Below are positions 1,193-32,391 of a stretch of 34,760 bases of DNA, piece by piece. The stretch's first letter is position 1, and every line of letters begins with the position of its first letter. This DNA comes from Seison nebaliae. Its lineage: Eukaryota. The DNA is taken from NCBI GenBank assembly GCA_023231475.1, contig JALJEE010003057.1, forward strand, positions 124,001-158,760, in the 5' to 3' direction. Made by a program: the position numbers and the translations under genes. The notes beneath the pieces were generated by a model, which saw only the letters and a program-made list of their open reading frames with translations, ran no database searches and was not told the origin of the DNA.

Positions 1193-4100
1193 TTAACGAA
1201 ATATATTACTTCTCCATAACTGAGTGAATTTCTCGAAAGCGCTCATGTAATTATGTTGAGGAAGTTTCGTTTTTCTTACAGTTTTACATTTCGGACAACA
1301 TTCGCCAATTGCCGTTGGAAGGATTTGTTCACAATTCTCCAATTTCGGACATTGAACATCTTGACAGAAATTTTCTGGACATGAAGGACAACATGCTCCT
1401 GGTTGGTGGTATTGATCGTCATCGTCACAGTCTACTATGGGACAATTATTCAAATCGATTTCTTTACAATTATTTCTCTCACATGCTGAACAGCAATGAC
1501 CAATTTCTGGTTGTGCTAGGATTGGATTAGAACATTTGGGTTTTTCACATTTTACTTTCGAACAATTTTGTCGACATTTCGGACAACATTCACCAGGTAA
1601 ATAATATTGATTCACTTGATCGCATCTCAATATCGGACATTCGATTTGGGAACAATCGTCCTTGCACGTTTTACAACATTTATTATTCTTAAAATCAGCA
1701 GGAATTGGATTGGGACAATTTGCTATTTGACATTTAGTAAGATCACATTGCAAATCATTACAAACAGCCGTCTTATAACATCGTTTCGGTTGGCCGACAC
1801 ACATATTTTTTTCGATACATATCGTTCCGAAAGGACATCTTCTTTCCTACAAATGAGAGAAACGAATAAAAAGAGAAATTATTAAAATTAACATCACATT
1901 TCTTATAATGAGTCTTAATTTTTTTACAAGTTGCTTTCCTCCCATCCAACACACATTGGGAATCAATTGAGCATTTAAAATTCTTACATAAATCATCCAT
2001 CAAATCTGAAATGAATAATAATAATAATTTATTGTCCACTAATGAAAATATAATTAAAATAGAGACCTCTTTGACATCGATTACAACATTGAGTCCCGTA
2101 ATTCATCGGCATAAAACACCACATTGAATGACAATTGAATTGTGTTCGACAAACGATCTTACTCGTTGCTTCACATTTACATTCTTGACAATTCGATTTC
2201 TCAACAACTTCTCCAACTGCATAATGTTTCCCATTCTTCTCACAACCTAAAAAATAGTCTTACGATGTTAATAGTGGTGAAAGAATAGAACCTGCTACAC
2301 ATTCCAAACAACATTTTCCCGGTTTCATAATCGGATTATCGCAGAATGTGGGTGGACAAACCGGTGGTTGACATTGGACAGTACCAAAAAGACAAATACA
2401 AGTCAAACATTCACTTACCGCCCAAGTCTGTCCATTGATGTATGGTTTATTTTGATATTCACAATTATTCGAACAAGTTGGACAACATTCACCGGTTTGG
2501 AGAACTGGTTTGGGACATGAGATTGCTGGGCATTTTATCGAATCGCATTTAAATCCAGATACTGTACATTTACATCTCGTACATTTATTCTTCACTAATG
2601 TCTGACCGATATGATACACATCGCCTTCAAATCGACAAACATTTGCTTCCCCACATACCTTACAACATTGACCAGGTATGGAAATTATCTTTTCACAATT
2701 CAAAGGTGGACAAGGTTTGACGATACAATTAGTTTTATTTCCCTCACTACACATACAAGTTTCACACGGATTTTTGAAAAATTTCTGACCCAATTGATAA
2801 GTTCTTCCTTCGTACGTACAAACTTTTGAATAGGAAGATAATTAAGCATTAAAAATTTTCTTGAAATTCTAACCGTTCGTCGCTAGACATTGAGGACAAC
2901 ATTTACCTTTAATAGTAATCGGATTGTCACAAGTTAACGCCGGACATTTGATCGTTTCACAAAATACTTTCGCCTGTTCAGCGCAAGTACAAACGGTACA
3001 TTTATCTCTATAGAACTTTTGACCAATGGTAAATATTTTACCTTTCTCATAACATTCTTGAGATTGGAAATTATTGAGATATTGGAATTATTCGAATTAA
3101 GAAAATGAAAACCGTTTGGACAAATAGGACAACACTGTCCGGGAATAATTCTTGCATTTGCACAATTTATATAAGGACAAGTTTTTCGTTTACAATTAAA
3201 ATTACCACTTGCCAAACAAGTACAAATGGTACATGAATTAGCCGCATATTTCTCACCCATTTTATAATATTGACCATTATAAGTACAGCCCGTTGTTGGA
3301 CCTAACAGAAAATTATCAACACTTAATCATTCATAAAAATAATTAGAGGGACTACCTATTGTTGTTGTCCAACAAACTGGACAACATTCACCTGGTTTAA
3401 TGATGGGATTAAAACAACTAATTCCAGGACATGTAGTGGACGTGCAATTCATTTTATTATTTTGCATACAAACACATTGTTCGCAAGGTGATTTCTTAAG
3501 AATTGCATTCACTTCATAATGCATTCCATAATAATTGCAACCTTAAATAATCAAAAAACATTTTTAAAAGAAAACTGAAATGACGAGACGTTCAAACCCG
3601 TTTGACAAACTGGACAACATTTTCCTGGAATCTGAATAGGCATACATGACGGTAATGTTGGACAATTCATTTTTCTACATTTAATTCCATTCTCCGTACA
3701 TTCACAAATGGTACAAACATCTTGATGATAAACGAATCCCAACGGTAACGCTTTATCTCCTTTCATACAAACTGAAAGAAGAAATTAAATGAAATCTGGT
3801 AAATTTCTTCTAACTTCCTAAAGGACAAATTGGACAACATTTATCTTGTGGTTTGATTGGTTTTGGACAGTTTAATGTGGGACAGGTTGGCTCTTTGCAT
3901 TTGATGAGACCGGTTGGTAAACAGATGCATGACTTACACTTCTCCAAAGTGAAATATTGACCGATGAAATATCGGAATCCTTCATAAGTACAATATTTCG
4001 GTTTGTCGTTCGCACAAACTGGACAACATTGATTTGACAAATATTCCAATTGTGCACAACGCAATTGTGGACAGATAATCGTTCGACATGTTGGAGAGCC

Positions 4101-7100
4101 TTCGATACATTGACAGAATTCACAATTACTTCTTTGAAATGATGTTCCGTTGGGATATGTTACACTATTCTCCGTACACGAATGTTGACATGACGGACAA
4201 CAATTACCAGCCACAATATTTTGAATTTTACAAGTTAATGTGGGACATTCTGGTGTAACACATTTTAATTGACCACCTTCTCGACACGTACATTTCTCAC
4301 AAACATTTCTCATAAACACTTGACCATAATTATAAGTAATTCCATTTTCCGTACATTTTTCCTGACAAATCGGACAACAAATTCCATCGATTTTCGTTGG
4401 TTGCGAACAAGATAAAATAGGACATTGTTCCGTTCTACAATCCACTTTTCCTTCTTCACAACATCGACAAGTGGTACATTCATCAACATCGAACGTCTGT
4501 CCTAATCGATAAACTTTTCCTTCTTTGTTACATGTGATGGGACAGAATGGACAACAAAGGTCATCATTCTTCACCGGATTAAGACAAGGAGGTGTGGGAC
4601 ATTTAATTGTCTCACATTGAACTCCTTTCACATTGCATCGACACTTCTTACATGGAGTTGGATTGAAATATTCACCCAACAGATATCTCTTGCCATCTGC
4701 TTCACAATTCGATGGACAAATCGGACAACAATTTCCTTCAATTTTTTGAGGATTCGAACAATCCACCGGGGGACATGAAACTTGGACACATGACACTTTT
4801 CCATTTCTTCCACAAACACATCGACTACATGGATCACGATAAAATGTTTGTCCGAGAACATAAACAACATCTTTCTCCGGACATGCTACAAATAAAACGG
4901 AAAATAAATTAATGATAAATAAAATTATTAAATGTATTAATAAAAATTAAATTTACTTGAAGGACATTCAGGACAACATCGGCCGGCTTTCTTAATGGGA
5001 TTTTGACAGAAGCATTCCGGACATTCAACTTTTTTGCATGTTACTCTACCATCATTTTCACATACGCATTTAGTACATTCGTCTTTATGGAATATTTCAC
5101 CAGCACTATAAACTTTATCATCCACCACACAAACTATAAATGAAATTATTAAATATTTTTAATGACATGAAGAAATAACTGTTCGTGCAAACTGGACAAC
5201 ATGTTCCTGGATGAGTTATTTTATTCATACATTGCAATTGTTGACATTGGATTTGTTGACAATGAACTCCGTTTTTGGTACATTGACATTTGACACATGT
5301 ATCTCTATAAAAGAGATCGCCAACTTTATAAGTTGTTCCTTTTTCAAGACAAGCTAATAATCGAATAAATCATAAGATTATGAAATTAATTATAATGATC
5401 AAAATGAATCATTAACTATCTGAACAATGGGGACAACATTTCCCAGTAATTTTTATAGGATTCGAACATTGAACTGTTGGACAAACTTTAGTTTCACATT
5501 TCATTTGTCCAGCTTTCTGACAAACACAGGAATTACAATCATCCTTTTGTACGCTTTGTCCAACATTATATGCAGTTCCATCATAAATACAATCTAAAAA
5601 GTATTTGAACTTTACGGCAAGACGAAAATAGAGAACTTGCGGGACAAATTGGACAACATTTACCCGGTATCATTACCGGTTTTTGACATTCCAATGATGG
5701 GCATTTAGAAACGATACAAGTTACTTGACCATTCAAATTACATATGCAGGAAGTGCAAGGATCCTTTTTAAATTTCTGTCCTATTGTATAAGCGATATCT
5801 TCATATTGACAAGCTGACAAGAATGATTAATATATTATCGATAAAAGGAAATTGGAACTATTGAAACATTGAGGACAACAAATTCCGGGAATTTTCTTTG
5901 GCGTTGCACAAGTGACAGGTGGACAAATGATTTTCTGACATTTAACTTCGCTAGTTGTCAAACATTTGCATTTATTACATTCTCCTTTATAAAAGACTTG
6001 ACCGTATCGATAACTGATTCCTTCATGAGTACAGTCCATTCTACAGACAGGACAGCATTCTGCAGGTAATTTTATTGGATTAGGACAAGTGACTGGTTTG
6101 CATTTGGTTGAGAAACATTCCACTTTATTATTCACTCCACAGAAACATCGAGTACAGACATCTTTATAAAAGACCTGACCAATCGTATAAGTGATCTGAT
6201 CGACGGTACATGCTTAAGTATTTAAATGATGATGATTTATTAATTATGATAAAACGAACTTTCTGGACATTGACCACAACAGGCACCTGGTAATTTGATT
6301 TGATTCTCACAATTCAAAGTAGGACATTGTTCAGTCATACAAGTAACTTTGTTGTTCATTTGACATATGCATTTCGTACAAGCATCTCGATGAAACACTT
6401 GATTAACCGAATACGTTTTCGATCCATCCTCACAAGCTGTTCAATAACGTGCAAAATTTAATTTTAGAAACTTATTATTTATTTTATAAAACTGGATGGA
6501 CAGATTGGACAACATTGACTGGGTATATTAATTGGTTTTGTACAACTGGGTGTTTGACACGACTCCACTATACAATCGACTTTCGAGTTCGTATTGCACG
6601 TACATTTGGTGCATGGATCTCTAAAAAAGGTTTGTCCTATTGAATAAATTATTCCATTTTCATTACATCCCTTCGAACAAATCGGACAACATGTCCCAGG
6701 CAATTGAATCTTTCTCGAACAAGTGATGGGAGTACACTCCTCAGTCGTACAAACGATGTTCGAACCTTCTTCACATTTACATTTGGTGCAGGCGTCTCGA
6801 TGAAACTCTTTCCCCAGAGGAATAATTAATCCTTTCTCTTCACACTCTAATTTGATAAGGGGAAATTTAAAAGAATAAAATTATTTAAATTATTTTAATT
6901 GTTCAACTTTGATGACAAATCGGACAACATTTCCCTGGAACTTGCACAGTGCCCAAACAATTGAGTGGTGGACAAACTTCATGTTGACAATTTATATATC
7001 CCAATTCTTCACATACACATTTAGTACAATCATCTTTTTGAAATTGCTGATTAGTTTCATAAATAATTCCATTATGCTCACAAACTATTCATTCAAATGG

Positions 7101-8181
7101 AAACGGAATGAGAATAAGAATTAAAATGTAAATATTAATAATGTTAAACTTTTCTGACAAATTGGACAACATGTACCTGGTTTAACAATTGGCGATTGAC
7201 ATTTTACAGGAGGACAAGTTTTATGCGTACACGGCATAAGGCCATTTACCTCACAAGTACAAATGATACAAGGTGAATCTTGATATTTTTCTCCGATTTC
7301 GAAACTCATATTACGATATTGGCAAACTATAGAAGGAGCTGATGATAAATTAATGATAAATTTGAAATAAATTTGATTATAAAATAATCACGTTCGTTCG
7401 GACAAGTTCCACAACAACTATCCGGTTTAATTATTGGATTAGCACAAGCCAATAAGGGACATGGCTTCTTTGAACAAATTGCTCCGTTGGCAGTACAAAC
7501 ACAAATTGTACATTTGTCTTTCTTATATTGTTGCCCAACTTCATATTGTTGACCGTTGTGTTCACAAGGGAATTTTGTATCACAGGCTGGACAACAAGCC
7601 CCAACTAACATTATTGGATATTGACAAGTTAACTGAGGACATTTCGGCATTTGACAATTTATGGTGCCACTTTCACACGTACATTGTGTATTGCATTTGG
7701 ATCGACGGAATCGTTGACCATTATTGTACGTTTTCCCATTTTGTTTACAAGTTGTGTCACCACAATTGCCACGTCTTTTTATGAACAGTCGTTTATTTCG
7801 ACATCGAGCTTTTCTAAATGTACATAAATTACTGTAAGTAATACCGTTATTTGCACACATCGGATCTTCATTTTTACCACATTTTTTATTACAAACATTA
7901 TATTGGTGGTTAAATGGAATATTTTCCATATATGGCAAGTTCATAGACGACGGTAATCTTCCAAATGTTTCCATTAAGAAATTTTGGAGATGTTCTGGTG
8001 GGATTTCTGGTAATCGTTCACTTTGTGGCATTCGATTTTGTGAGACTCTATAAGTATTCTTACCCAAATCTTTCTCATTATTCAACGCCGAATCGGATAA
8101 ATAAATCGATTCTCTTCTTTCATTAAAATTACTCCACACTAAAGTGAAATGGCAGAATGATATTACATATAAGAAAATCAT
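1193..8181 (-). CDS. Secreted kielin/chordin-like cysteine-rich protein: signal peptide, Kazal domain, ~27 VWC repeats, follistatin-N-like module, 5 half-VWC repeats; 19 exons, ~2,000 aa
   Basis: The many minus-strand Cys-rich ORFs join in frame through 18 GT-AG introns of roughly 40-70 nt. Repeats follow C-x4-G-x2-Y-x2-G-x2-F-x3-C-x2-C-x-C...CP...C...G-x-CCP-x-C. The N-terminus is hydrophobic ([17 protein letters not shown]) and is followed by the Kazal motif [27 protein letters not shown]. Confidence 0.9.
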
Positions 8182-8847: not shown

Positions 8848-10380
8848 CTACAATTCGCTATGAAAACTGGGCAAGTCATCCATTTTGCGTCGTTCTTCAA
8901 AGAATTTCTTCAACGAAGCGACACTTCTTTTCATCAGAATTTCGTTACTAGACGAGGATCTTCTAAGAAAACTTGACCTGTATTTATTCGAACTGCTTAA
9001 CGAAAGTGCTAGTTCTGACTGAATTCCATATAATCCATGTTCTTCTAAGATTTCCTGTGAAGATTGACTAAATTCTAAATTATCTATTGTATCATATTTC
9101 TTGTAGCATTCGGCCGAGTTATTATGATTTTCCTTTGGAGAGAAATTCAGGTCGCTGAAGGACGTAAAGTCATTTATGTCGTCTATCGTCACTAACGATT
9201 GTGTTTTCTTCATTTGATTTCCATCTAAATTTTTATCAACAATATTCTGCGTAATCGATTCAGTTTTTAAAGAATCGAACGACTTAGACTTCTCGATCGA
9301 AGAAACTTTTCTTTTATTTTTATAAATATAACACGCGTTTGGTAACGGAGGTTTCGGTTTACTTATTGTTCGTTTGATTTTGTTAAGAAAAGTTCCTCTT
9401 TGGTTGGATTTCGTTTGATTAAGATTACGACAAAGTTTCAATTCGGAAGAAATTCTCGAACAAATATCTTCACCTTCATCTTCCTGATCATAATGGCCGA
9501 GTTCGATGAAGGATCTGTATCTTTTTTCGAAGGATTTTAATTCAGGAATGACTCGATTGTTATCGGAAGTGTTGTCGGTTGCTGAACTATTGGCAATATA
9601 AGCACTGACATAAGGTAGTTTGTGATGTGATGAGAGAATGGCAGGCATAACGGGCAGATGTGAACCTGGTAATGTTTGTATGATGTGAGATATACGTTGT
9701 TGAATGTATGATTTAGTTTGAATTTCGGAGAAACAATTTGGAATAAGAGAATTGATCAATTGTTTCTCACGTCTCGATAATTTATCGATAACATCTCGAG
9801 CTAAAATAGAATTTAAATAATCGATCGTTTCTTCTGGTAATTCAAAATCGTTATTTTCATGAATTGGCGTATCTCTTAAATTCGTCATTTGAGAGAGGAA
9901 ATTTCCTTCGTAAAATTGAGAGAATTCGTCAGTACGGTTATGCTGATTAACATTCCAATTCGATTGATTAGAGTTATGTTTGTTTCGATTATAGAATTTT
10001 TTTTTAAATCGATTAAAATTTTTTTCGACATCTGGCGATTTATAATTCTCTTTCCAAAAGAATCCGAATACTAAAATGAGAGTGCCCATAATGACAGTGG
10101 CAATAATACCGATGAGAGGCGGTCCATATGTTAATAATTGAAAGAAGAAAATATATGTGGAAGATTTATCACGACCATGATGATCTTTTAATAGATAACT
10201 TTCGGAATGCATTGACGAAGAGGGATTGTCCAAAGCATCATCTGCCAAGATCGTGACGGAGAATGTGTAATTGGAAGGGACATCTTCGATCCCATCGTTC
10301 GTTGCCATAGCAATAGGAAAGAGGCGAAGAGTAAAGGTAAGAATCAATAAGAATATTGATGGACATACATTCATGTGCAT
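8848..10380 (-). CDS. Uncharacterised single-pass type I membrane protein (510 aa, intronless)
   Basis: Long ORF in AT-rich DNA. It has a signal-peptide-like start, one hydrophobic segment (PPLIGIIATVIMGTLILVFGFFW) followed by basic residues, and a Ser-rich tail. No family recognised. Confidence 0.8.
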   Translation of the reverse strand: MHMNVCPSIFLLILTFTLRLFPIAMATNDGIEDVPSNYTFSVTILADDALDNPSSSMHSESYLLKDHHGRDKSSTYIFFFQLLTYGPPLIGIIATVIMGTLILVFGFFWKENYKSPDVEKNFNRFKKKFYNRNKHNSNQSNWNVNQHNRTDEFSQFYEGNFLSQMTNLRDTPIHENNDFELPEETIDYLNSILARDVIDKLSRREKQLINSLIPNCFSEIQTKSYIQQRISHIIQTLPGSHLPVMPAILSSHHKLPYVSAYIANSSATDNTSDNNRVIPELKSFEKRYRSFIELGHYDQEDEGEDICSRISSELKLCRNLNQTKSNQRGTFLNKIKRTISKPKPPLPNACYIYKNKRKVSSIEKSKSFDSLKTESITQNIVDKNLDGNQMKKTQSLVTIDDINDFTSFSDLNFSPKENHNNSAECYKKYDTIDNLEFSQSSQEILEEHGLYGIQSELALSLSSSNKYRSSFLRRSSSSNEILMKRSVASLKKFFEERRKMDDLPSFHSEL

Positions 10381-11022
10381 TGCTGCTCAAATCATATTCC
10401 GAAAATAGAAAACAAGTAGGTATAACCGAAATAAACTAGCCTTACCTAATACAAAATTGGATTATGAAGAAATTAAAAATGAAAAAATTCTTTTCCAAAT
10501 TTCTACATTCTACTTACATTAACAACTGTTATTGAATCACTCAGTCACTTTAAATGTTTAAATCAACCAAAATTGAAAGAGTTAAAAAATATTTTTTTAA
10601 AAATTATTTTCATAGACACTTTTGGAATTTAGTGGAAAATTTTAATTTGGATTTTTCCCCAACAACAAGTGTCCAAGAAATCTGGCGTGTTTTATCGGAC
10701 AATCCTTCTATAAACAAATCGGAAGAGAAATATGTTTATCATTCCTTCCAATATTGTTCATATTGATTATTGAGATTGTGAAATATGTTAGGAGGAGGAT
10801 ATGGAAATGTAATCGTGAATAAATAATCATATGTCAACATCTATTTCTGCCAATGAGATATTTCTACTAGCTAAATTGAGAACAGTGAGTAGAGTTTATT
10901 GTTTGTTAATGACAAATTGATTGATAACAATCCCTCGTTTTAATGAAGAGGCAAATATAAGTGAGATAATATGAATCGAAGGAAAAAAAAATCGAACTCA
11001 CAAAATAAGAAAGTCCAAAAAA

Positions 11023-11439
11023 ATGGAAAAATTTTCAGTAATAATTTTATTGATTTGTATTATCATTTCAAGAATATCAGTGAGCGAAGCGGTGAAATGT
11101 TTCGCTTGTGACAGTTCAAATGATCCAAAATGTTCTCGTGAAGAAAATCAAGTAGTTGGAATAGCCGATGATATAGAATGTACTGGATATTGTATAGTTA
11201 GAATTCTATAAGAATATTATTATTATCTAATTTTTCAGTATATGTCAAATCCCACTCATAATTCGCTGGATTTTCCACATATTCATCGAAGTTGTTTGGC
11301 TATTTGTCCGGCGGATTCGGCAGGGTATAAAGTGAAATGTTGTAAATCGAATTACTGCAACGGAAGTGGATCATTAAGAGCGTATTCTCTAATTGGAGTG
11401 ATGATTTTATTAATAAAATATTTGATAATGAAATTATAA
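11023..11439 (+). CDS. Ly6/uPAR three-finger protein, probably GPI-anchored (quiver/sleepless-like); 2 exons
   Basis: A 42-nt intron (GTTAGA...TTTCAG) joins two ORFs. The product has a signal peptide, 10 Cys from VKCFAC to CCKSNYCN, then GSG and a hydrophobic C-terminal tail. Confidence 0.88.
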
Positions 11440-12803: not shown

Positions 12804-13157
12804 TATCTATTTCTTATCAAATTTATCAATTTTTGATTGTTAATAATATGACGCAAATTGCTTACACGAAACCAAATTTTTTATTTTTTTTTCCTTTAAT
12901 TTATTCATCAAACCATTTAAGCTAAATATTTCCCCAATTTTCCTTGTCAAAATTTCATATTTCTTCGATTCTAAAGTAAACCGTTCAGAAACCACAATAT
13001 TCAGGTCAATGCTTAATCGCTCATTAATTTTAATTTTAGATTATTTTTGTAACCAACTAACTTAATTACTTTACTTTACTAATTTTAAAATTGTATTTGA
13101 AAATATAATTTTAATTCAAAAAAAACGACTGCTATATGAATAAAATGATATTAAGTC

Positions 13158-16100
13158 TTAGTCTTTTCCGTCCGCATTTTTTCGATCTTCTTCGATTTTC
13201 TTCAAATTTTCGTAGCGCGCTTTAGCTTCTCTCAATGGTTGAATGATATTAATTTCAATTTGAGGAAATAACTGAAAAAGTTTTAAGTTGAATTTTTAAA
13301 TTAGAAGTGAGAAATAATTTAAAATAAACTTTTCCCAAAGTCTCAAACATTGGTAATAAAACAAATTGAATAAATCCAATTTGTGCGTCCGGTTTTGTCA
13401 CTTTATCCCGATCCATAAATGGTGCTACAGGTAAACCTAATTCTTTCTCGCGATCAGACTGATTAGCATTGTTAGAATTTGATTGAAGATATTTAGAAGA
13501 AAACTTGTTGAAAATATTCAGTTAGAAGACAATCCACCCACGGATCCGACACTTCCATTGGACGTACCTCGTTGCTGATATCGCAACATTTAATGAGAAT
13601 TAATTTCAACTGAACGGGAACAAGTGAGGAGGATAGTCGAAAGAAATCGAAACGTTCTGCAAATGTTTCTCATCCTTGAAATTGAATGTTTCATTTATGT
13701 TACCCATAAAACTGTCCAATAAAGTCTTATGTGCTGCCATATCGGTTGCCAGGATCAAATCGACCAATTGCTAAATGAGAAGAAAATGAATCGATATCGA
13801 ATAGATAATGAACTTTTCGCACATAATGAAAACTCTCGTTTGATAATGAGGAGAAAATGTTGCATTCAGGAATACTTAATATTTGGAAAGCAACAGCACA
13901 ATGATGATTCTCTAAAGGAGATTTATCATTATAACGAATTGCAAGTTCGGTACGAGCATTGATTTGGTAACTAAAAGAAAAGAAAAATTATAACAATATA
14001 GAATAAATATTAACGCGTTGTTAAATCCAGGATGATCGAGATCATGACATATTGCCGCAGTCAACAAAATAGCTTGATCCAAAGTTGAAAGAACATCGAT
14101 TAAACTATAAACATAAAATTTGAATAAAATGAAATTAAATTAAATGAAAAGTTGAAAATTTTTAACTTTAATTGATGAATCATTCCGTACATCATTTGAG
14201 CAACACAAAAACAATGTTGAAAATTATGAAATGGATTTAATCGATAATTCGTTTGAACACATAACTGAAAGGAGATTAGAAAGTTTAATTGAAATATTTT
14301 ATGATATAAATTATTGGAACCAAAAATTTTCTCAAAGTTATTGGAGATACGAGTAATTCATCAATAATCTTCAATTCCTGAAACATATGTTCCAATAAGG
14401 ACAACATCTGAAATTTAAAGGAAGAAATATTTTTAGTTTAATCAATCCTATAGTTTAGAACCTCGTTCGGTTCCCAATGCCAAATGTTGAATGTTGGTTG
14501 TTTTAAGTAGTCAATTGTCTCTTGAGTTAATTGATACTTATCATAAAGTGGCATGTCCTTCTTAAACAATTCCCATCTTCTTTTCGGATCTGTCTCACTG
14601 GAAATATAATGCAGGAAATGAATTAGATGAATGATAATGTGAATAGATGATAATGAGAATAATATGATATGAATGATGATAAAGTCAAACGTTTCACTTG
14701 ATCTTCTCGATCGGTCACTTCCAGTTTTTGGGAGTTGCATCGCATTGTTAGTTTGCATTACTTCTTTGAGTTTCTTCAATTCCGTTCGATGGTTCTCCAA
14801 TTCAACTAGTTTATTTGACTCACCTAAAGATGAGTGATAGAATTTTATTTATTTTTGATCGACAATTAGTGTTTGTCGATAAGGGAGAAAGAGAATCGTC
14901 TATCTAATCTTTTAGTTGCATCGTCCTTCGATGATAATACTGTGCACTTCCACCTTATTCAAATATTTATACATTTCTTCCCCCTTACAATTCCTCCTCC
15001 CAAATGCACATACGTATTAAGGAATGATTAAAATGATAATATAATAAAAATTATTTTGACACCTATCCTTGTTCGATCGGTCAGCATAAACTTCATATTG
15101 GCAGACGAACATTATTTTTCGACCAACATACGTCTTACATGGAGATAAGCAATAACAAGTCTATCTAATTCATGTTCCTTCCCGTCAATGACTGGAACAA
15201 AGTAACAGTTGTAGTTTACTTCTAATTGTAGGACGTGTAAATTCAATTAATACAAGGCTCCTCCTACTTATCATCAACCATTCCCAATTATCATCATCCC
15301 ACAATTCTTCATCATTTTATTTATTCGGTGTCTGTTTGTGGCGATAATTTGGAGAAGACTAACGGTCTAGACGTTTCTCCAATTTCCGTATTTTTTCTTC
15401 TAATTCAAATTTTATATCGTTCACTCGTAACACTCTGGTTGGAAGTTTTTCTTATTAATGAATTAGAAGGAAGAAGACGAAACTTTTCGAATTGTGCAGA
15501 TAAATGAAAGAAGACGCTCTGTAATTTTGATTCGATGGCAGCTATGAAATAGGAAGAATTATTTGAAAGTTTTAGAATGATTTGATTAATACAATAAAAA
15601 TGAACCTTGTTCGAATGCTTCGTTAAATATTTCCAAAGAATAAGGTTCTCTGCTAACGGAAGACATGAGATACAATGTCATTTAAATTGGAGGATGGTAA
15701 AAAATGAGATTTAGTGATCTATTTATATTGGACATAATAACTGATGATATCATCAGATGACGTCATTGGGTGGATGGAGAGCTCTTTAACAAAAATTGTG
15801 CATGAATAGCAAGATGAGAGTGATACATTCAATTCCTGCAATTCTTTAGAGTTACCAATTCCTTCACATCTTCTTCTTAACAATAATAATCGATTTTTCT
15901 TCAGGGGAAATTTTTCAGGAAAGGTAATTGGAAAAAGTTCTTTTTATCAAAATTGGAATATATTCGAAGAAACGAGAGGAAATATTCGATAAGCGAACGT
16001 AGTTGAAAAGGAAATTTAAAAACACAATAAAACCGAAATTGAAGGAGGTAGAAGGAGAATGGAAGAAGAAGAAGAATAACATTCGATGAATTGATATTAT

Positions 16101-17907
16101 TGGGAAAGAATTAATAGATATAAGAATATATTCGACTTCGAAAAAGAATTAGTGCATTGTCACCATTTTCCACTGACGAAGAATGTCCGTTTAATTTTAT
16201 TTCTTTCTAAGATTGTTCGATGTAGTTGTTACTCATTAAAATATGACGAAAAAATTGTTTGGAAATTGTCATTAGCAAATAGTCGAATGAAAGACGAAAC
16301 GAACGAAAACGATTATCTTAATGAGCATAATGATTATTTATCATTTTTTTTTTCGCGACAAAGAATTTTCGGAGAAATTATAAGAATAATTGAATGATAA
16401 AAATATATGAAAACAAAATCTTCCGATACAATCAAGAAACTGTATAATTAAAAAAGTACAGGAAAAGGAAATTGAAAAAGAACGGGAAGAATTGTAATAA
16501 CACATCAGAATGTTGTGAGGAAGATCTATAATAAAAATGTTGGAATGACAAAATAGAGAGGGGAACGAAAGGAACTAAAAGAAATTAAAAGATGATTATA
16601 GAAAAGAACTAACGATGAATTGTTTTTAGGTAATGTGGGTGAGATGCTTACGATGCCATTGTGCGGATCTTTCAAGATAAAATCAGTAGTCCTGTCAACG
16701 ATTCAAATAACAGATTAATAAAGTAGAATGCTTTCGTATTCGCATCGTTAGAATGGAAGAAAATCAGGTAGCTATCCATTCAGATCTAAAGAAGAGATGT
16801 CTAATTCGACTCTCTTGAATTATTCAATAAACTTTCCAGATGAATAATTTACGTAATGGACGAGAAGCGAAGAGTTGAAAGAGATTTGTGCTGATACATA
16901 TTCTCCTTATCATTCGAACATGTTACAACGACATTAATAGATGAATTCGAGCAATCGGAATGTTCTGAAAAGACATTCTCAAACCGTCTTTCACAAATGG
17001 TTGCAAATGAAAACGAAGACAATTACACCAGCGAGCGAAGAAATATGATAGGAGATATTTTTTTATTCGAATTCGTTTCTTAATAATATTAAAATAAACG
17101 ATAAGAGAAATATTTATTAATAAGGAGAATGAAATTGAATGGATAAATATCCCAAAAAAAATGAAAGTGATAGGCGACTGATATTCTAAGGATATGACAT
17201 ATTTATATATATATATATATATATTCATCCGTTCTTCGATGGAGATGCTGTACAAATGCAATTTCCCATCCATAATATATCGATGAATTAAATGGTGATG
17301 CATATTGTCTTTAATAAAATCTATATCTATACATATCTATCAGACGATAAAGGAATGAGGACAGTAATAATATGAACATAATAAATATTGAATGAAGATT
17401 AGAATTGATATTTATTTCGCATATACTTCATTCATGGACATACTAATTTGTGCATATGAAGCATTTAATAATAGTCTGTTTGATGTGTAGGAATAATCGT
17501 GAGAAATAAAAATGGAAAATTATTAGACAAATACGAACTTTGGTACACCGACAGCCTTGAGTAATAGTTGACGAAAATCTTCTGTTGAACAAGTACCACT
17601 AAAAATGACCTAAAAAAATTAGAAGACAACATGCAGTCAATAATTAATTTTCCGCATCGAATCCTTCGGATACTCGTCGAAAATGGAATAATGATTCAAT
17701 GGCATAATAATAATAATAATAATAAGTTTTATTGCTAATAAGAAGATTGGATGCTTCTTTCATTTATATGTTCCTTTCTATTCTGTTCGAACAATGCCCG
17801 CCTCCTCCTCATCCAAACTTAGCAAGCAGTTAACTAACTTTGACATTGTTTGATTTATGTTTGATGAAGATTTCCTTTTTCTGTTCTGCCGCAATTCCGT
17901 TGCCCAT
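13158..17907 (-). CDS. PDE9A: cGMP-specific 3',5'-cyclic phosphodiesterase 9; 16 exons
   Basis: The spliced product contains [72 protein letters not shown] and [30 protein letters not shown]. The N-terminal exons (MGNG..., [12 protein letters not shown]..., [11 protein letters not shown]..., KLEKRLD...) follow the PDE9 N-terminus. The ORF track misses most of this gene. Confidence 0.93.
17204..17224. repeat. (TA)n microsatellite in PDE9 intron 2
   Basis: Read directly. Confidence 0.85.
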
Positions 17908-18232: not shown

Positions 18233-19827
18233 CATTCGGTTATGTTCAGTTTAATGCAGAAAATGAACATAATCATAATGTCTATTATTATAATAAGGGA
18301 AATACCTGACCGAATCTTTTAATATCTTCATCTTTTTATACAAATTCTCCTTCTTGTCAAGTGTAGAACTAAGAACTATCATTAAGTAAATCTTTTAACC
18401 CATTATACCTTTCTTCATCAATTCAAGCGCAAGCTAATTCCTTATATCATTAATATGTAGTAAATGTCACGCTGAGAAAAAATTTTCTCTGCTATTCTTT
18501 AGCGAAATAATTGATTGTAATTCTCAGAAAACAGGAAGATGTACAGCAATTTAATCCTTCATACTTTCCAACCAAACATCAACCGAATCATGATGTCATG
18601 CCATTTAGACCATTTTTCTATTAAATTTTTTATATAATTCCTATTTTGTATTACCATGATGATGAATAAGACGATGAATCAATGACGTTAAGATCTTAAT
18701 ATTATTAACAGTATTTTTCATCTGATTATAAGATAGGTGAAATAAATGATATCAAATTTTCATATATTAATAGATTAAGGCAAAATAATCCATATATATT
18801 TAAAGCCCGATGGCTTTAGTCCATCGTTAGTCAATCGTAGAATAAGATCAGAAGATAAAACAAAATCTCTATACATTTTCGTTAAAGACGATCAATAATT
18901 TTCACCTCAACAAACAAATTGTTTCAGATAGAAGAAAGTTAAATGTGAAATATAAAATCTTATTTCACTTAATGGATAAAAGTATTCTTTGGCGGATGGT
19001 TACATATTCTTGAAAAATATCCCATATGGCAAGGCGAATGGGCATAAAAATTGATGAATTATTGCACTAAAACCCAAAAAATTGTTTTTCATCGAACTTG
19101 GTAATTTATGTTCAACCTAACAAGGAAAGTATCCGATAGACAGGGAACGAAATTATAAATAAAAATAATTCGGTAAGTTTTAGTAATAGTTTGGTTAAAT
19201 GCCATTAAAGTTTTTCTTCTTTCAAAACACTTCAAAACCTCAAATTTTAAAAACTTCTTCAAAAAACTTTATTCAAAAATTTGTTAGCACTTTGTAGAAA
19301 TATCTTATACTTTTTTTTTGTAATTTCTCATTGAAACTTTTTGAAGTCGTTCAAGTCGATAGTACGGATCAGTATTTATTAATGTTAAAACATCTGACAA
19401 ATTTGATATGCTAACATTTGCTAAAAATGAACAGAAGTAAAATTTTAATCTGTAACTAACTGACTAGCAAAGGAAATTAAAGAAAGAACAAGGAGAAAGC
19501 CGAAAAAGACAAAATGTACTTGCCGAAAGAAAAAAAGGCAAAAAATGAACAAAAAATGAACAGTCAAACCAAAATAACGATAAATAACGATTGTGTTTGT
19601 TAAAAAATAAATGAAGTACGATGTAAAGTGAGATAAATTTCAAAAAGATGTTACTCACATTATCTTCGAGACAATTTGCAACTTTAAAGTCCGAAATAAG
19701 TATTTGAAAGATATTAATCTTTCTTTGAGTTCCTTCTTCGATTTTATTCCCAAAGGAAGCTAAGCATTTATAAATTGATATGCAAATTCTTCATTTAAAT
19801 GAAGAATCAGATTTAGGAAATATGTCA

Positions 19828-28047: not shown

Positions 28048-29784
28048 TCTTAAGTGAATGTGATCATTCACCAATAAAGAATGAAGAAAGAATTCTATAA
28101 ATAACTAAAAAAAAATTGAATATAATCAATGTAGAATAAATTTCCTCTCGAAAAAACAATTGAATGTGATGAGAAAGAATTAAAGGAAAATAATAAAGAA
28201 AAAATTCGATGAGATTCATAGAATGAAAAAAAAAAGGAATTAGTAGAATAATTGGAAGAGAAGATTATGCAACCTATATGGAAATGTCAACAAATTCATT
28301 AAATTCATCTCTTCTCAAATACATATCAATTTGCAGATATATCTCATACAAATTCCATTATCGTACATATTTGTTTTGGGGGGGAGAGGGAAAGAGATAA
28401 ACATCTCAACATTCTCCTACCATTCTCCTAACTTATCAACAATTATTCTAATTTTTAAATTTTTAGCTTCATCTTTCCTCTCATCAAATCACTCAACCTA
28501 TTCCATATTTCCTTTAATTCTTTTCCATACACTACAACTTAATCATTGGAACATATTAACAACACAATTTCTCATTTTAACATCAGTTTCATTTCGTGAA
28601 AAATTTCCACAATTTCTACGTATCAATCCAAATTGAATAACGATTTAATAAAATTGAAAATAATTTGATAAATTACTTAACTATTGTATTAATTGTATTG
28701 ATTTACATTGTAAGATAAAATATCTGCAAGTTGAATTCTGATGAATTATTTGTCTGATGACATTGGAAATGATTGAACAGTTTCCAAAATATGGATAAGA
28801 AATTTGAACTTTGTATTTAACACGAGGAGATCGAGATGTGGCATTTACTAATAATTTAATAATGTGAGAAGGAAGTTGAAGAAATTTTATTTATTTGATT
28901 TAATAATAATTTGAACGAAAATTTTAAAATCTTCTCTAATATCCAATCTTCTTCACTTCCCTATTATTATTAAACTGTAATCAATCTTTCATTCAATCAA
29001 TCAAGAGGAGAAACAATTATAAGTTTATTAGAGTATTATCAGTTTGCCAATTGTCCATCGTTCGTTATTTATATTTACGTAAGTTCTGGTCCGCCTTTAC
29101 AAGATTCAGTCTTTAATGTTCCGCATGAAACGGATGTGCAACCTTGGTGTTAATTTGTTTTCCTTAATTTGTTGAATGAATGAAAATGTTAGAATTAGAA
29201 TAATGGGAGGAGTATTTGCTAAAATGAACAAGAAAGAAATAATATAAAGTTATTTCTAGAAGACTTACGGGAATATGCTCGAGTACAATTCTTCCTCTTC
29301 ATAGCCACTCTTCAATTTCCGTCGATATTGGGAACATAATGGAATGAATGGTCTTTCTCATTTGGTGAAAGGTCAAATCATTTTAGTTTTGAGAATGAAT
29401 TCCAAAGGAAGGAGGAGTATGACGGAAGAGAATAATTAAAAAAATGAGCTGAAATTATTAGTTTCTTACTTATTATATGTAAGGAGGAGAGGAGAATTCA
29501 TTGAGATAGATAAATACATTTTCCTCAATGTATCTACCGTAAAATGTGAATGTAAATGTAAATGTAAATAAAATTTTGAGAGATTTGAAATAAAAAGAAT
29601 CCAAACTCTAACAATCATTAGATAAGTGGCAAATCTAAATTTATCATTTATCAATGTCATCCATCTTATGATTAATATATTATGATGAGAAATAAATTAT
29701 TAATAATTTAATTTGTAATTAATTAAATTTAATTAAATTTTTCATTCTTCTCTTCCATTTAGAAATCGTATTTATTACCAGTAA

Positions 29785-32391
29785 ATGGAAAAAAGATGTC
29801 TTTTATTCAACATTGTTTCAGTATTCATTTTGTTGAGTGATGTGGCAATCGGTCAATCGATTCTCACATTCGAACCTGACCAAAAATCGAAATATGTCGT
29901 CGAATATTCGGACGGACATTTCCAAGTGACATCAAGAAAATCGTTCATTTTAAACGTTTTCATCACCGATTATAATGGAAGTGATTCCATACCGATGATC
30001 TTGACGAAAAGAAAACAGATATTATCAAACCGATCTTGTAACACTAATGGCGATGGAATCGATGGTAATTTGAAAAGAATCGGAAAAAATAAATATCAAA
30101 CCGATTTATATTTTTATGATATTGGCGATTATTATTTTTGTTTGGATGTCTCGTCAGATGGAGAATATCGTTACGAAAATAATGAAATGTTTTTGAGTGT
30201 GGTAAAAGAGAAGAAGAGATTAATGCCAATTTGGATTCAAATAATTTTACTTTGTCTACTCCTTTGTCTCTCAGCGTTGTTCAGTGGATTAAATTTGGGA
30301 TTGATGTCTTTGGACAATACGGAATTGCAAATTTTGAAAGATGTTGGAACTGATGCAGAAAGGAAATATGCAAAGAAAATTATTCCTTTAAGACAACGTG
30401 GCAATTTTCTTTTATGTTCCATTTTGTTAGGGAACGTTCTAGTCAATTCAACTCTCACCATATTATTAGATGATATTTCATCAGGTTTATATGCAGTTAT
30501 TGCATCAACTGCATGTATCGTTATTTTTGGAGAGATCATTCCACAAGCTGTTTGTTCACGATATGGATTGATGATTGGAGCGAAGACACTTGTTATCATG
30601 AAATTTTTCATGTTAGTCACCGCCGTCATTTCTTATCCCATTTCTCGATTACTCGATGTTATTTTGGGAGAAGAAATTGGATGTGTTTATTCGAGAGAGA
30701 AATTACGATGTCTTTTACGATACACCAAAGATCGAATGGATGTTAAAGATCGAGAATTAGAGATAATGCAAGGTGCATTGGAATTGACGAAGAAAACGGT
30801 CGGTTCCATCATGAAATCCATCGAAACGGTTTATATGTTAGAATGGCAAGATCGATTGGATTTCAGTTGTATCACCGAAATCATTAAACAAGGATATACT
30901 CGTGTTCCAATTTTCAGAGATGATCGAAAAAATATTGTCAGTTTGTTAAATGTAAAAGATTTGGCATTGATCGATCCTGAAGATCGAATAACTGTAGAGA
31001 ATTATTGTAATTATTATAAACATGATTTCGAACGTTGTGATATCGACAAACCATTAGATTCATTATTAGATGATTTTAGAAAGGGAGGATGTCATATGTG
31101 TATTGTAACGAAAGTGTTCAATGAAGATCCAGATCGTGATCCGTTTATGGAAGTGGTCGGTTTAGTAACATTGGAAGATGTGATTGAATCGATATTTCAT
31201 TTAGATATATTTGATGAATATGATCAGAATGAGAAAGAAGGGAAATTATTAGCATTTACTGGTCGACAGAATTCGGCGAAAACTGGAAATATTCATGCGT
31301 GGTGGAAAGTGGATGATCTCAATCAATCACATATTCCATCATCTTTAGCATATGCGGCGATGATGTTCCTCTCTCAACAAATAGAATTATTCAAACCTGA
31401 TATCATTCTTCAACAAATGTTACTTCGTCTTATTCAATTTTGTTTCATTGATTTCCGACCACGAGATCTAATCGGACGTTGTCTTGATGATGCGACGACA
31501 GATAAAGCAACAATCGATCCAATCGCTGGCGATGAGAAGACTTTAGAAGAGGAGAAACATTACATTTATAAGAATGGAGTATCAGCTGATTATTTCGTAT
31601 TGATATTAGCTGGATCAGCAGAAATTGAAACGAATGGAATGAAATTTCAAGTAACTCCATTCCAATATTTTGGAGAGGAAGCATTGACACATGTCTGTGA
31701 TGATGAGAGTATTTCAAACGATATATTTTCAATTGATGTAACAAAAAAACAATTTTTACCAACTTTCACTATTTATGGAAAGACTTCACATTTACAATAT
31801 ATTCGAATTCATAAACAACAATATTTTAATGCTTTACATTTCTCTCATTTGAGACGTGGTGCACCACGAGAAGATGGTGATACAGACATCAATTTCACGA
31901 ACAACAACAACAACAACAACAACAATAATAATAATAATAATAATATTAATCATATGAATTATGATATGATAATGAAACCATCAACTCAAATGAAAGAGAA
32001 TGATAATGTTTCAATAAAATCCTTACAGAATATTAGCAAGACGAATAGTTATTGGAGGAAGTTGCAACCTCCATTCCATCCAATCATTCGTCAACAATTT
32101 CAACGTTCCGACAAAATCCATAAACAAAAATCACCAGATAGTTCGACGATATCACCGAAAAAAATAACTGACGATATTATATTGCCAGGACGACGTTCGA
32201 GAAAAGGCAGTCAATTGACAATTGAACGTTCGGATAATTCAACGCCATTACCACCACTCATCACGCCATCCAAAAGAGAAAAATTGAGATTAAATGATAA
32301 CAAATCTCCTTTGACGACCGTTGCATCAGCAACCGCGTTAAATGTGTCTGATGAAGCAAAAGAGAGATTACTTTCTGATAGAACAGAATAA
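29785..32391 (+). CDS. CNNM: CNNM family metal (Mg2+) transporter (CNNM2/unextended-like), intronless, 868 aa
   Basis: Signal peptide; DUF21 motifs LSALFSGLNLGLMSLD, LLCSILLGNVLVN and IVIFGEIIPQAVCSRYGL; CBS pair (GYTRVPIF, GLVTLEDVIESI); cyclic-nucleotide-binding homology region (ADYFVLILAG...FQYFG). Confidence 0.96.
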   Translation: MEKRCLLFNIVSVFILLSDVAIGQSILTFEPDQKSKYVVEYSDGHFQVTSRKSFILNVFITDYNGSDSIPMILTKRKQILSNRSCNTNGDGIDGNLKRIGKNKYQTDLYFYDIGDYYFCLDVSSDGEYRYENNEMFLSVVKEKKRLMPIWIQIILLCLLLCLSALFSGLNLGLMSLDNTELQILKDVGTDAERKYAKKIIPLRQRGNFLLCSILLGNVLVNSTLTILLDDISSGLYAVIASTACIVIFGEIIPQAVCSRYGLMIGAKTLVIMKFFMLVTAVISYPISRLLDVILGEEIGCVYSREKLRCLLRYTKDRMDVKDRELEIMQGALELTKKTVGSIMKSIETVYMLEWQDRLDFSCITEIIKQGYTRVPIFRDDRKNIVSLLNVKDLALIDPEDRITVENYCNYYKHDFERCDIDKPLDSLLDDFRKGGCHMCIVTKVFNEDPDRDPFMEVVGLVTLEDVIESIFHLDIFDEYDQNEKEGKLLAFTGRQNSAKTGNIHAWWKVDDLNQSHIPSSLAYAAMMFLSQQIELFKPDIILQQMLLRLIQFCFIDFRPRDLIGRCLDDATTDKATIDPIAGDEKTLEEEKHYIYKNGVSADYFVLILAGSAEIETNGMKFQVTPFQYFGEEALTHVCDDESISNDIFSIDVTKKQFLPTFTIYGKTSHLQYIRIHKQQYFNALHFSHLRRGAPREDGDTDINFTNNNNNNNNNNNNNNNINHMNYDMIMKPSTQMKENDNVSIKSLQNISKTNSYWRKLQPPFHPIIRQQFQRSDKIHKQKSPDSSTISPKKITDDIILPGRRSRKGSQLTIERSDNSTPLPPLITPSKREKLRLNDNKSPLTTVASATALNVSDEAKERLLSDRTE
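31900..31944 (+). repeat. Coding (AAC)n(AAT)n microsatellite giving poly-Asn in CNNM
   Basis: Read directly. Similar coding tracts occur in STX5 (poly-Gln, poly-Thr) and the GW182-like gene (poly-Asn). Confidence 0.9.

Follow-up and report, generated by a model that had tools for sequence, protein, structure and literature searches.

The analysed stretch of DNA (the window, 34,760 nt) belongs to Seison nebaliae, a marine seisonid rotifer, and contains a PDE9 gene and a Cys-rich VWC-repeat gene (Table 1), one PDE9 exon being 100% identical to S. nebaliae SNEBB_005626 (P0242). The labels kielin-like (for the VWC-repeat gene), syntaxin-like, dynein-chain-like and GW182-like are provisional ones of our own; the only Pfam names encountered in the window were GRAM, Pmp3 and weak three-finger matches. 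Weak matches of the latter kind (three-finger/Ly6) fell on a small secreted Cys-rich gene (11023-11439, plus strand) with one GTTAGA intron. Long unbroken coding stretches adjoin the intron-dense genes, namely the 3' part of SMU1 (1-1071, plus), CNNM (29785-32391, plus) and an unnamed membrane protein (8848-10386, minus).

Table 1. Position and donor usage of the two homology-fixed genes and of the PDE9 introns (a slash separates exon from intron)
Feature	Position	Strand	Length (nt)	Donor	Remarks
Cys-rich VWC-repeat gene	1193..8178	-		14 GTT, 2 GTA, 1 GTG, 1 GTC	comparison set of 18 short introns; one open frame
PDE9 gene	13158..17907	-		GTT in all 15	16 exons, 15 introns; single open frame
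PDE9 intron 1	17610..17838	-	229	GTTAGT; aaa/GTTAGTTA	homology
PDE9 intron 2	16692..17538	-	847	GTTCGT; aaa/GTTCGTAT	homology
PDE9 intron 3	15653..16613	-	961	GTTAGT; atc/GTTAGTTC	homology
PDE9 intron 6	14824..15363	-	540	GTTAGT; acc/GTTAGTCT	in depositor's model P0242
Eleven short PDE9 introns	region 13272..15605	-	43-93	all GTT	none with G+5T+6

All intron counts refer to this single 34.8-kb window and were kept in two tiers. The first comprises 33 introns fixed by homology in the PDE9 and VWC-repeat genes, 29 of them short (43-93 nt) and four long. Removing these GT...AG introns restores open frames that match homologues in both genes, which fits major (U2-type) spliceosomal introns, the VWC-gene parse having admitted GT-AG introns only; this parse was guided by homology and never scored positions +3 to +6. 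The second, less certain tier consists of 23 short introns from four further genes, which were parsed by reading frame only and blind to the donor (over the five less conserved genes such parsing left small margins at many donors), and four ambiguous syntaxin-like introns were excluded from the counts. Together, the two tiers amount to 52 short introns (29 homology-fixed and 23 frame-only) with a range of 41-100 nt. Spliced joints were absent from the sequencing runs aligned to the window, which behave as DNA, and the introns were called from frame and homology. One run (X1) had been guessed to be RNA and was rejected as such: it spans the stretch as one identical piece and may be the source of this DNA.

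Mapping of the deposited PDE9 protein (P0242) onto the minus strand is exact and yields 12 introns, each starting with GTT, the 540-nt intron among them. The model from which it derives (SNEBB_005626) begins at an ATG inside intron 3 and is without the first three exons (16614-17907, minus); introns 1-3 join these absent exons, to which we assign a start ATG at 17907. When joined, the added exons match the PDE9A N-terminus in 6/6 compared proteins (best 36.7% over 79 aa, E 2.5e-13). At the donors of introns 2 and 3 the neighbouring GTs are all out of frame, at intron 1 an in-frame GT situated 6 nt upstream would remove two residues from a gap-free alignment, and at intron 6 an in-frame GT 9 nt upstream gives a poorer fit to homology. 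The initial annotation had the four long introns starting with GTTAGT, GTTCGT, GTTAGT and GTTAGT (ACTAAC or ACGAAC on the plus strand at 17833, 17533, 16608 and 15358), and both the motifs and their positions were recovered; its lengths of 229, 847 and 540 nt were also right, and the third intron, given there as ~964 nt, measures 961 nt.

Related contigs of low depth (mostly 2-6, vs 14-30) differ from the window at ~4-15% of aligned letters. Among the 40 differences listed (63 more exist), 24 lie in or beside PDE9 exons, 23 of these being exonic and 22 synonymous; within the three added exons 9/9 listed differences are synonymous. The available text of the Seison genome paper reports S. nebaliae as two divergent lineages (PMC8351084), and we read the low-depth contigs, from their sequence, as a probable second lineage.

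At donor position +3, T is positively preferred: 29/33 homology-fixed donors have it there, against 30% among 702 decoy GTs from the same two genes (p=8e-12), and a purine is present in 3/33 vs 42% of decoys (p=3e-5). Within the frame-only tier, 16/23 donors are GTT. G occupies -1 in 9/33 donors (in none of the long ones), and exon ends are A-rich. One account of the GTT donors is that they mirror T-rich introns and have drifted as selection relaxed, nothing in particular reading them. The introns are indeed 42% T, T follows 42% of intron-internal GTs, and positions +4 to +9 of the short donors resemble the AT-rich background; however, 29/33 stands well apart from that 42% (p=6e-8), and A is found at +3 in 2/33 donors despite its abundance. 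The preference is one of T over A and is therefore more than AT-richness alone, and we rejected composition as a very improbable explanation. Another account has a canonical U1 pairing one base out of the usual register, at sites of the GTT-A-A-G type, an arrangement that Roca and Krainer reportedly described in 2009 for some atypical human donors. It predicts the T at +3, but it also predicts G at +6, which is seen in 2/29 short and 0/4 long donors, the long ones carrying G at +5; given this rarity it too was rejected, as the most remote of the readings considered.

Long and short introns differ further downstream in the donor. GTTAGT starts 3/4 long vs 0/29 short introns (Fisher p=0.0007, homology-fixed) and G+5T+6 is present in 4/4 vs 1/29 (p=0.0001; 3/52 short introns with the frame-only tier added), the motifs behind these p-values having been picked after inspection and the four long introns coming from one gene. 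Neither A+4 (3/4 long vs 9/29 short, p=0.12) nor T+3 (4/4 vs 25/29, p=0.58) distinguishes the two classes, and +3 T is thus not a long-intron feature. At +4 the long introns read A, C, A, A and the short ones C/T/A/G = 8/10/9/2; G+5 in short introns stays at background (5/29 vs 22% of decoys), and 20 different hexamers occur among the 29. The earlier statement that GTTAGT never begins a short intron (0/50) agrees with our counts of 0/29 and 0/23, and among the alternative donors listed for the four ambiguous syntaxin-like introns none is GTTAGT. As for GTTAGT being the strong donor of long introns, we could confirm that long introns carry the stronger donor, but not that GTTAGT is a unique optimum, since +4 varies; the data point to GTTNGT rather than strictly to GTTAGT.

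There are, hence, two separate signals: a general and unusual T at +3, and G+5/T+6 as an addition confined to the long introns that reflects a known length effect. Strong donors in Drosophila and human have a purine at +3, whereas the long Seison introns have T. Longer introns carry stronger splice sites in both of these animals (PMC3245539, available text), and the long PDE9 introns likewise have the more informative donors. What is unusual is that GUU donors should be general in an animal rich in introns. In the open-access literature searched we found no animal with GTT donors, and nothing on donor consensus or U1 in Seison or rotifers; the word 'snRNA' occurs 0 times in the main text of the Seison genome paper (PMC8351084), and the available parts of PMC10599564, PMC10158995, PMC11347168 and PMC10125929 hold nothing on rotifer donors.

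Several sites in the window could break the pattern. On their sense strands, nine genes together hold seven GTTAGT hexamers, three of which are the donors described above. Two more GTTAGT sites, at 13061 and 19460 (minus), lie upstream of the syntaxin-like and PDE9 genes, respectively, and are candidate UTR donors; the one at 19460 is a candidate donor of a 50-nt intron, which would break the zero count for short introns. A GTAAGT at 29079 (plus), upstream of the CNNM gene, is a candidate 5'-UTR donor of a ~680-nt intron, and a GTAAGT at 10517 and a GTAAGG at 10445 (both minus) are further such candidates upstream of the unnamed membrane-protein gene; as 5'-UTR donors, these three would weigh against a GTT-only optimum. 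GTAAGT is also found twice within coding exons of the VWC gene (2418 and 3937, minus), once with G at -1, and is apparently read through. Cryptic-site avoidance in the window gave no discrimination between U1 versions.

When U1 pairs with a donor, position +3 faces U1 nucleotide 6. This register, from which the initial annotation derived its U1 proposal, is established geometry and was right, the available text of PMC10581693 placing donor +4 against U1 nucleotide 5. We predict that the major U1 of Seison has A at nucleotide 6 (5'-AUAC[U/A]AACCUG), which would pair with the U at +3, and put the probability of this at about one in two. The broader proposition, that the U1 end has been rewritten (ACUAAC or ACAAAC) and the donor code of an intron-rich animal switched wholly from GUR to GUU, falls just short of even odds. 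We reason that short introns (40-95 nt) would be defined across the intron by little beyond GUU and an A-rich exon end, that a longer helix would be required at long introns, which would therefore keep G+5/U+6 (partners first of C4/A3 in U1 and then of the ACAGA box in U6), and that +4 would stay loose.

When 16 versions of U1 nucleotides 5-6 were compared, short donors were best separated from decoys by the four that had A as nucleotide 6, whichever base stood at nucleotide 5 (AUC 0.79-0.80 vs 0.64-0.68), and ACUAAC was best for the four long donors (0.95 vs 0.85 for the canonical version); this ranking restates the donor logo and is not independent of it. Neither U1 would pair well with the short donors (on average 5.1 or 5.9 Watson-Crick pairs out of 11), and as their G+5 is at background the helix would be very short under both. 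The T at +3 in 4/4 long introns, which have the best-matching donors, speaks in favour of A as U1 nucleotide 6; the non-GTT donors (4/33) and the two upstream GTAAGT sites speak against it.

The second lineage adds to this picture at two donors: alignments of the related contigs span those of introns 1 and 6 as well, and bases were read out for introns 2 and 3. Around the donor of intron 3, three records (three runs, one sample) cover 16607-16709 with four differences, all of them exonic, and GTTAGTT is therefore identical; the alignment ends at +7 while the contigs continue, GTTAGTT thus being kept in the diverged lineage and the flanking intron not. Such conservation counts for the predicted A at nucleotide 6. 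At intron 2 the related contigs read T at +4, giving GTTTGT (two runs of one sample at a depth of ~4, where an error is possible). With +4 being A or C in long introns, mixed in short ones and T in the related lineage, U1 nucleotide 5 therefore comes without a confident prediction. Apart from the donors, two intronic blocks (16230-16348 in intron 3, with 11 differences over about 119 nt, and 14759-15136 in intron 6) are conserved in the related contigs next to diverged intron, and are possibly alternative exons or regulatory elements.

The main competing explanation is that a canonical U1 (ACUUACCUG 5' end) tolerates +3 U opposite pseudouridine 6 and that U is selected at a later step or through proteins, which we consider a real contender at somewhat less than even odds. 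U would then be read by a G-U wobble with U6 G44, by a U6 whose ACAGA box has changed, or by contacts of a diverged U1C, LUC7, SNRNP27 or PRP8, and long introns would gain G+5/U+6 for the usual reasons. According to the available sections of the respective papers, +3 is touched by U6 G44 once the spliceosome is activated (PMC9803359), and a GUUUGU donor could form a fuller duplex with the ACAGA of U6 (Roy & Bowser, 10.1101/2022.06.08.495308). G+5/U+6 also fit U6 as well as they fit U1, and +4 varies, with U in the related lineage included. Against a canonical U1 it may be held that short introns are enriched for +3 T but not for G+5, on which pairing with U6 chiefly depends, and that long introns should gain A at +3, which 0/4 do.

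Published lineages have changed their donors with or without a change in U1, and precedents exist for both readings. Several did so under an invariant U1 (10.1101/2022.06.08.495308, PMC10581693, PMC13326754; available sections), but Entamoeba, the sole published +3 U lineage that we found, did change it, having GUUUGU(U) donors with a co-evolved U1 ACAAAC (10.1101/2022.06.08.495308). The same source, in the part available, gives ACGUAC for the Mastigamoeba U1, and a standard U1 kept in Micromonas, Thecamonas and 69 yeasts despite donor change. Seison resembles Entamoeba in having U at +3 as the norm (29/33 homology-fixed and 16/23 frame-only donors) and G+5/U+6 in its strongest sites. Entamoeba, however, is intron-poor, with a strict hexamer (~88% GUUUGU) in which both +3 and +4 are changed, whereas Seison is an intron-rich animal with short donors of little beyond GUU, a free +4 (GTTTGT in 0/33 homology-fixed donors) and a U1 change that is as yet a prediction.

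In Saccharomycotina, ACUUACC is invariant across 227 genomes despite donor change, and +4 A/U switches are tied to METTL16 and SNRNP27K under invariant U1 and U6 (PMC10581693, available text). The likeness to Seison lies in a lineage-wide change at a donor position facing a U1 pseudouridine, the difference in the position, +4 there and +3 in Seison. As far as the available sections go, the unchanged-U1 cases (yeasts, Micromonas, Thecamonas) are about +4, a position that U6 methylation explains separately. Fritillaria borealis is, like Seison, an animal with a reshaped splice code, and the U1 5' end is reported in the available text as not diversified despite extreme donors; it abandons GT-AG, as explained by U2AF paralogues and m6A changes, whereas Seison keeps GT-AG (PMC13326754).

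If the predicted U1 is true, Seison would be, as far as our literature search shows, the first animal with a rewritten U1 recognition end. For an animal with so many introns, a switch of this kind would mean that thousands of donors had to change together with the snRNA, and rotifer relatives would let the order of donor and U1 events be traced. Should the U1 be canonical, Seison would offer a natural test of what reads +3 (U6 G44 or a protein). Gene predictors tuned to GTRAGT may mis-model the Seison genome, the deposited PDE9 model being one without its first three exons.

An Rfam search of the window returned no match of any kind, snRNAs included, at gathering score or E<=1. Scanned with a U1 pattern that required A as nucleotide 6, metagenome contigs yielded 0 matches and viral contigs 0, and 12 matches to the same pattern in prokaryote genomes were taken as chance. 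A relaxed control scan of 14/64 parts of the metagenome collection recovered 131 stretches (129 loci, 140 U1 matches, 119 distinct), of which 134/140 read ACTTAC, 6/140 ACATAC and none A at nucleotide 6; these U1s belong to unidentified eukaryotes, none known as a rotifer, and have no direct bearing on the Seison U1, which may miss the pattern. The U1 5' end is, thus, nearly invariant, the compensated cases found in print being two amoebae, and with no A at nucleotide 6 among the 140 matches or in the targeted scan the change is therefore rare. ACATAC stands in U1 genes at L013, L049, L072, L120 and L128, most of which we read as plant-like; the A that it places at nucleotide 5 would pair with +4 U donors. 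Other metagenome loci (L001, L026, L054, L066 and others, from unidentified animals) hold compact clusters of U1, U2, U4, U5, 5S, U3 and tRNA genes within 3-5 kb, to which L001 adds U6.
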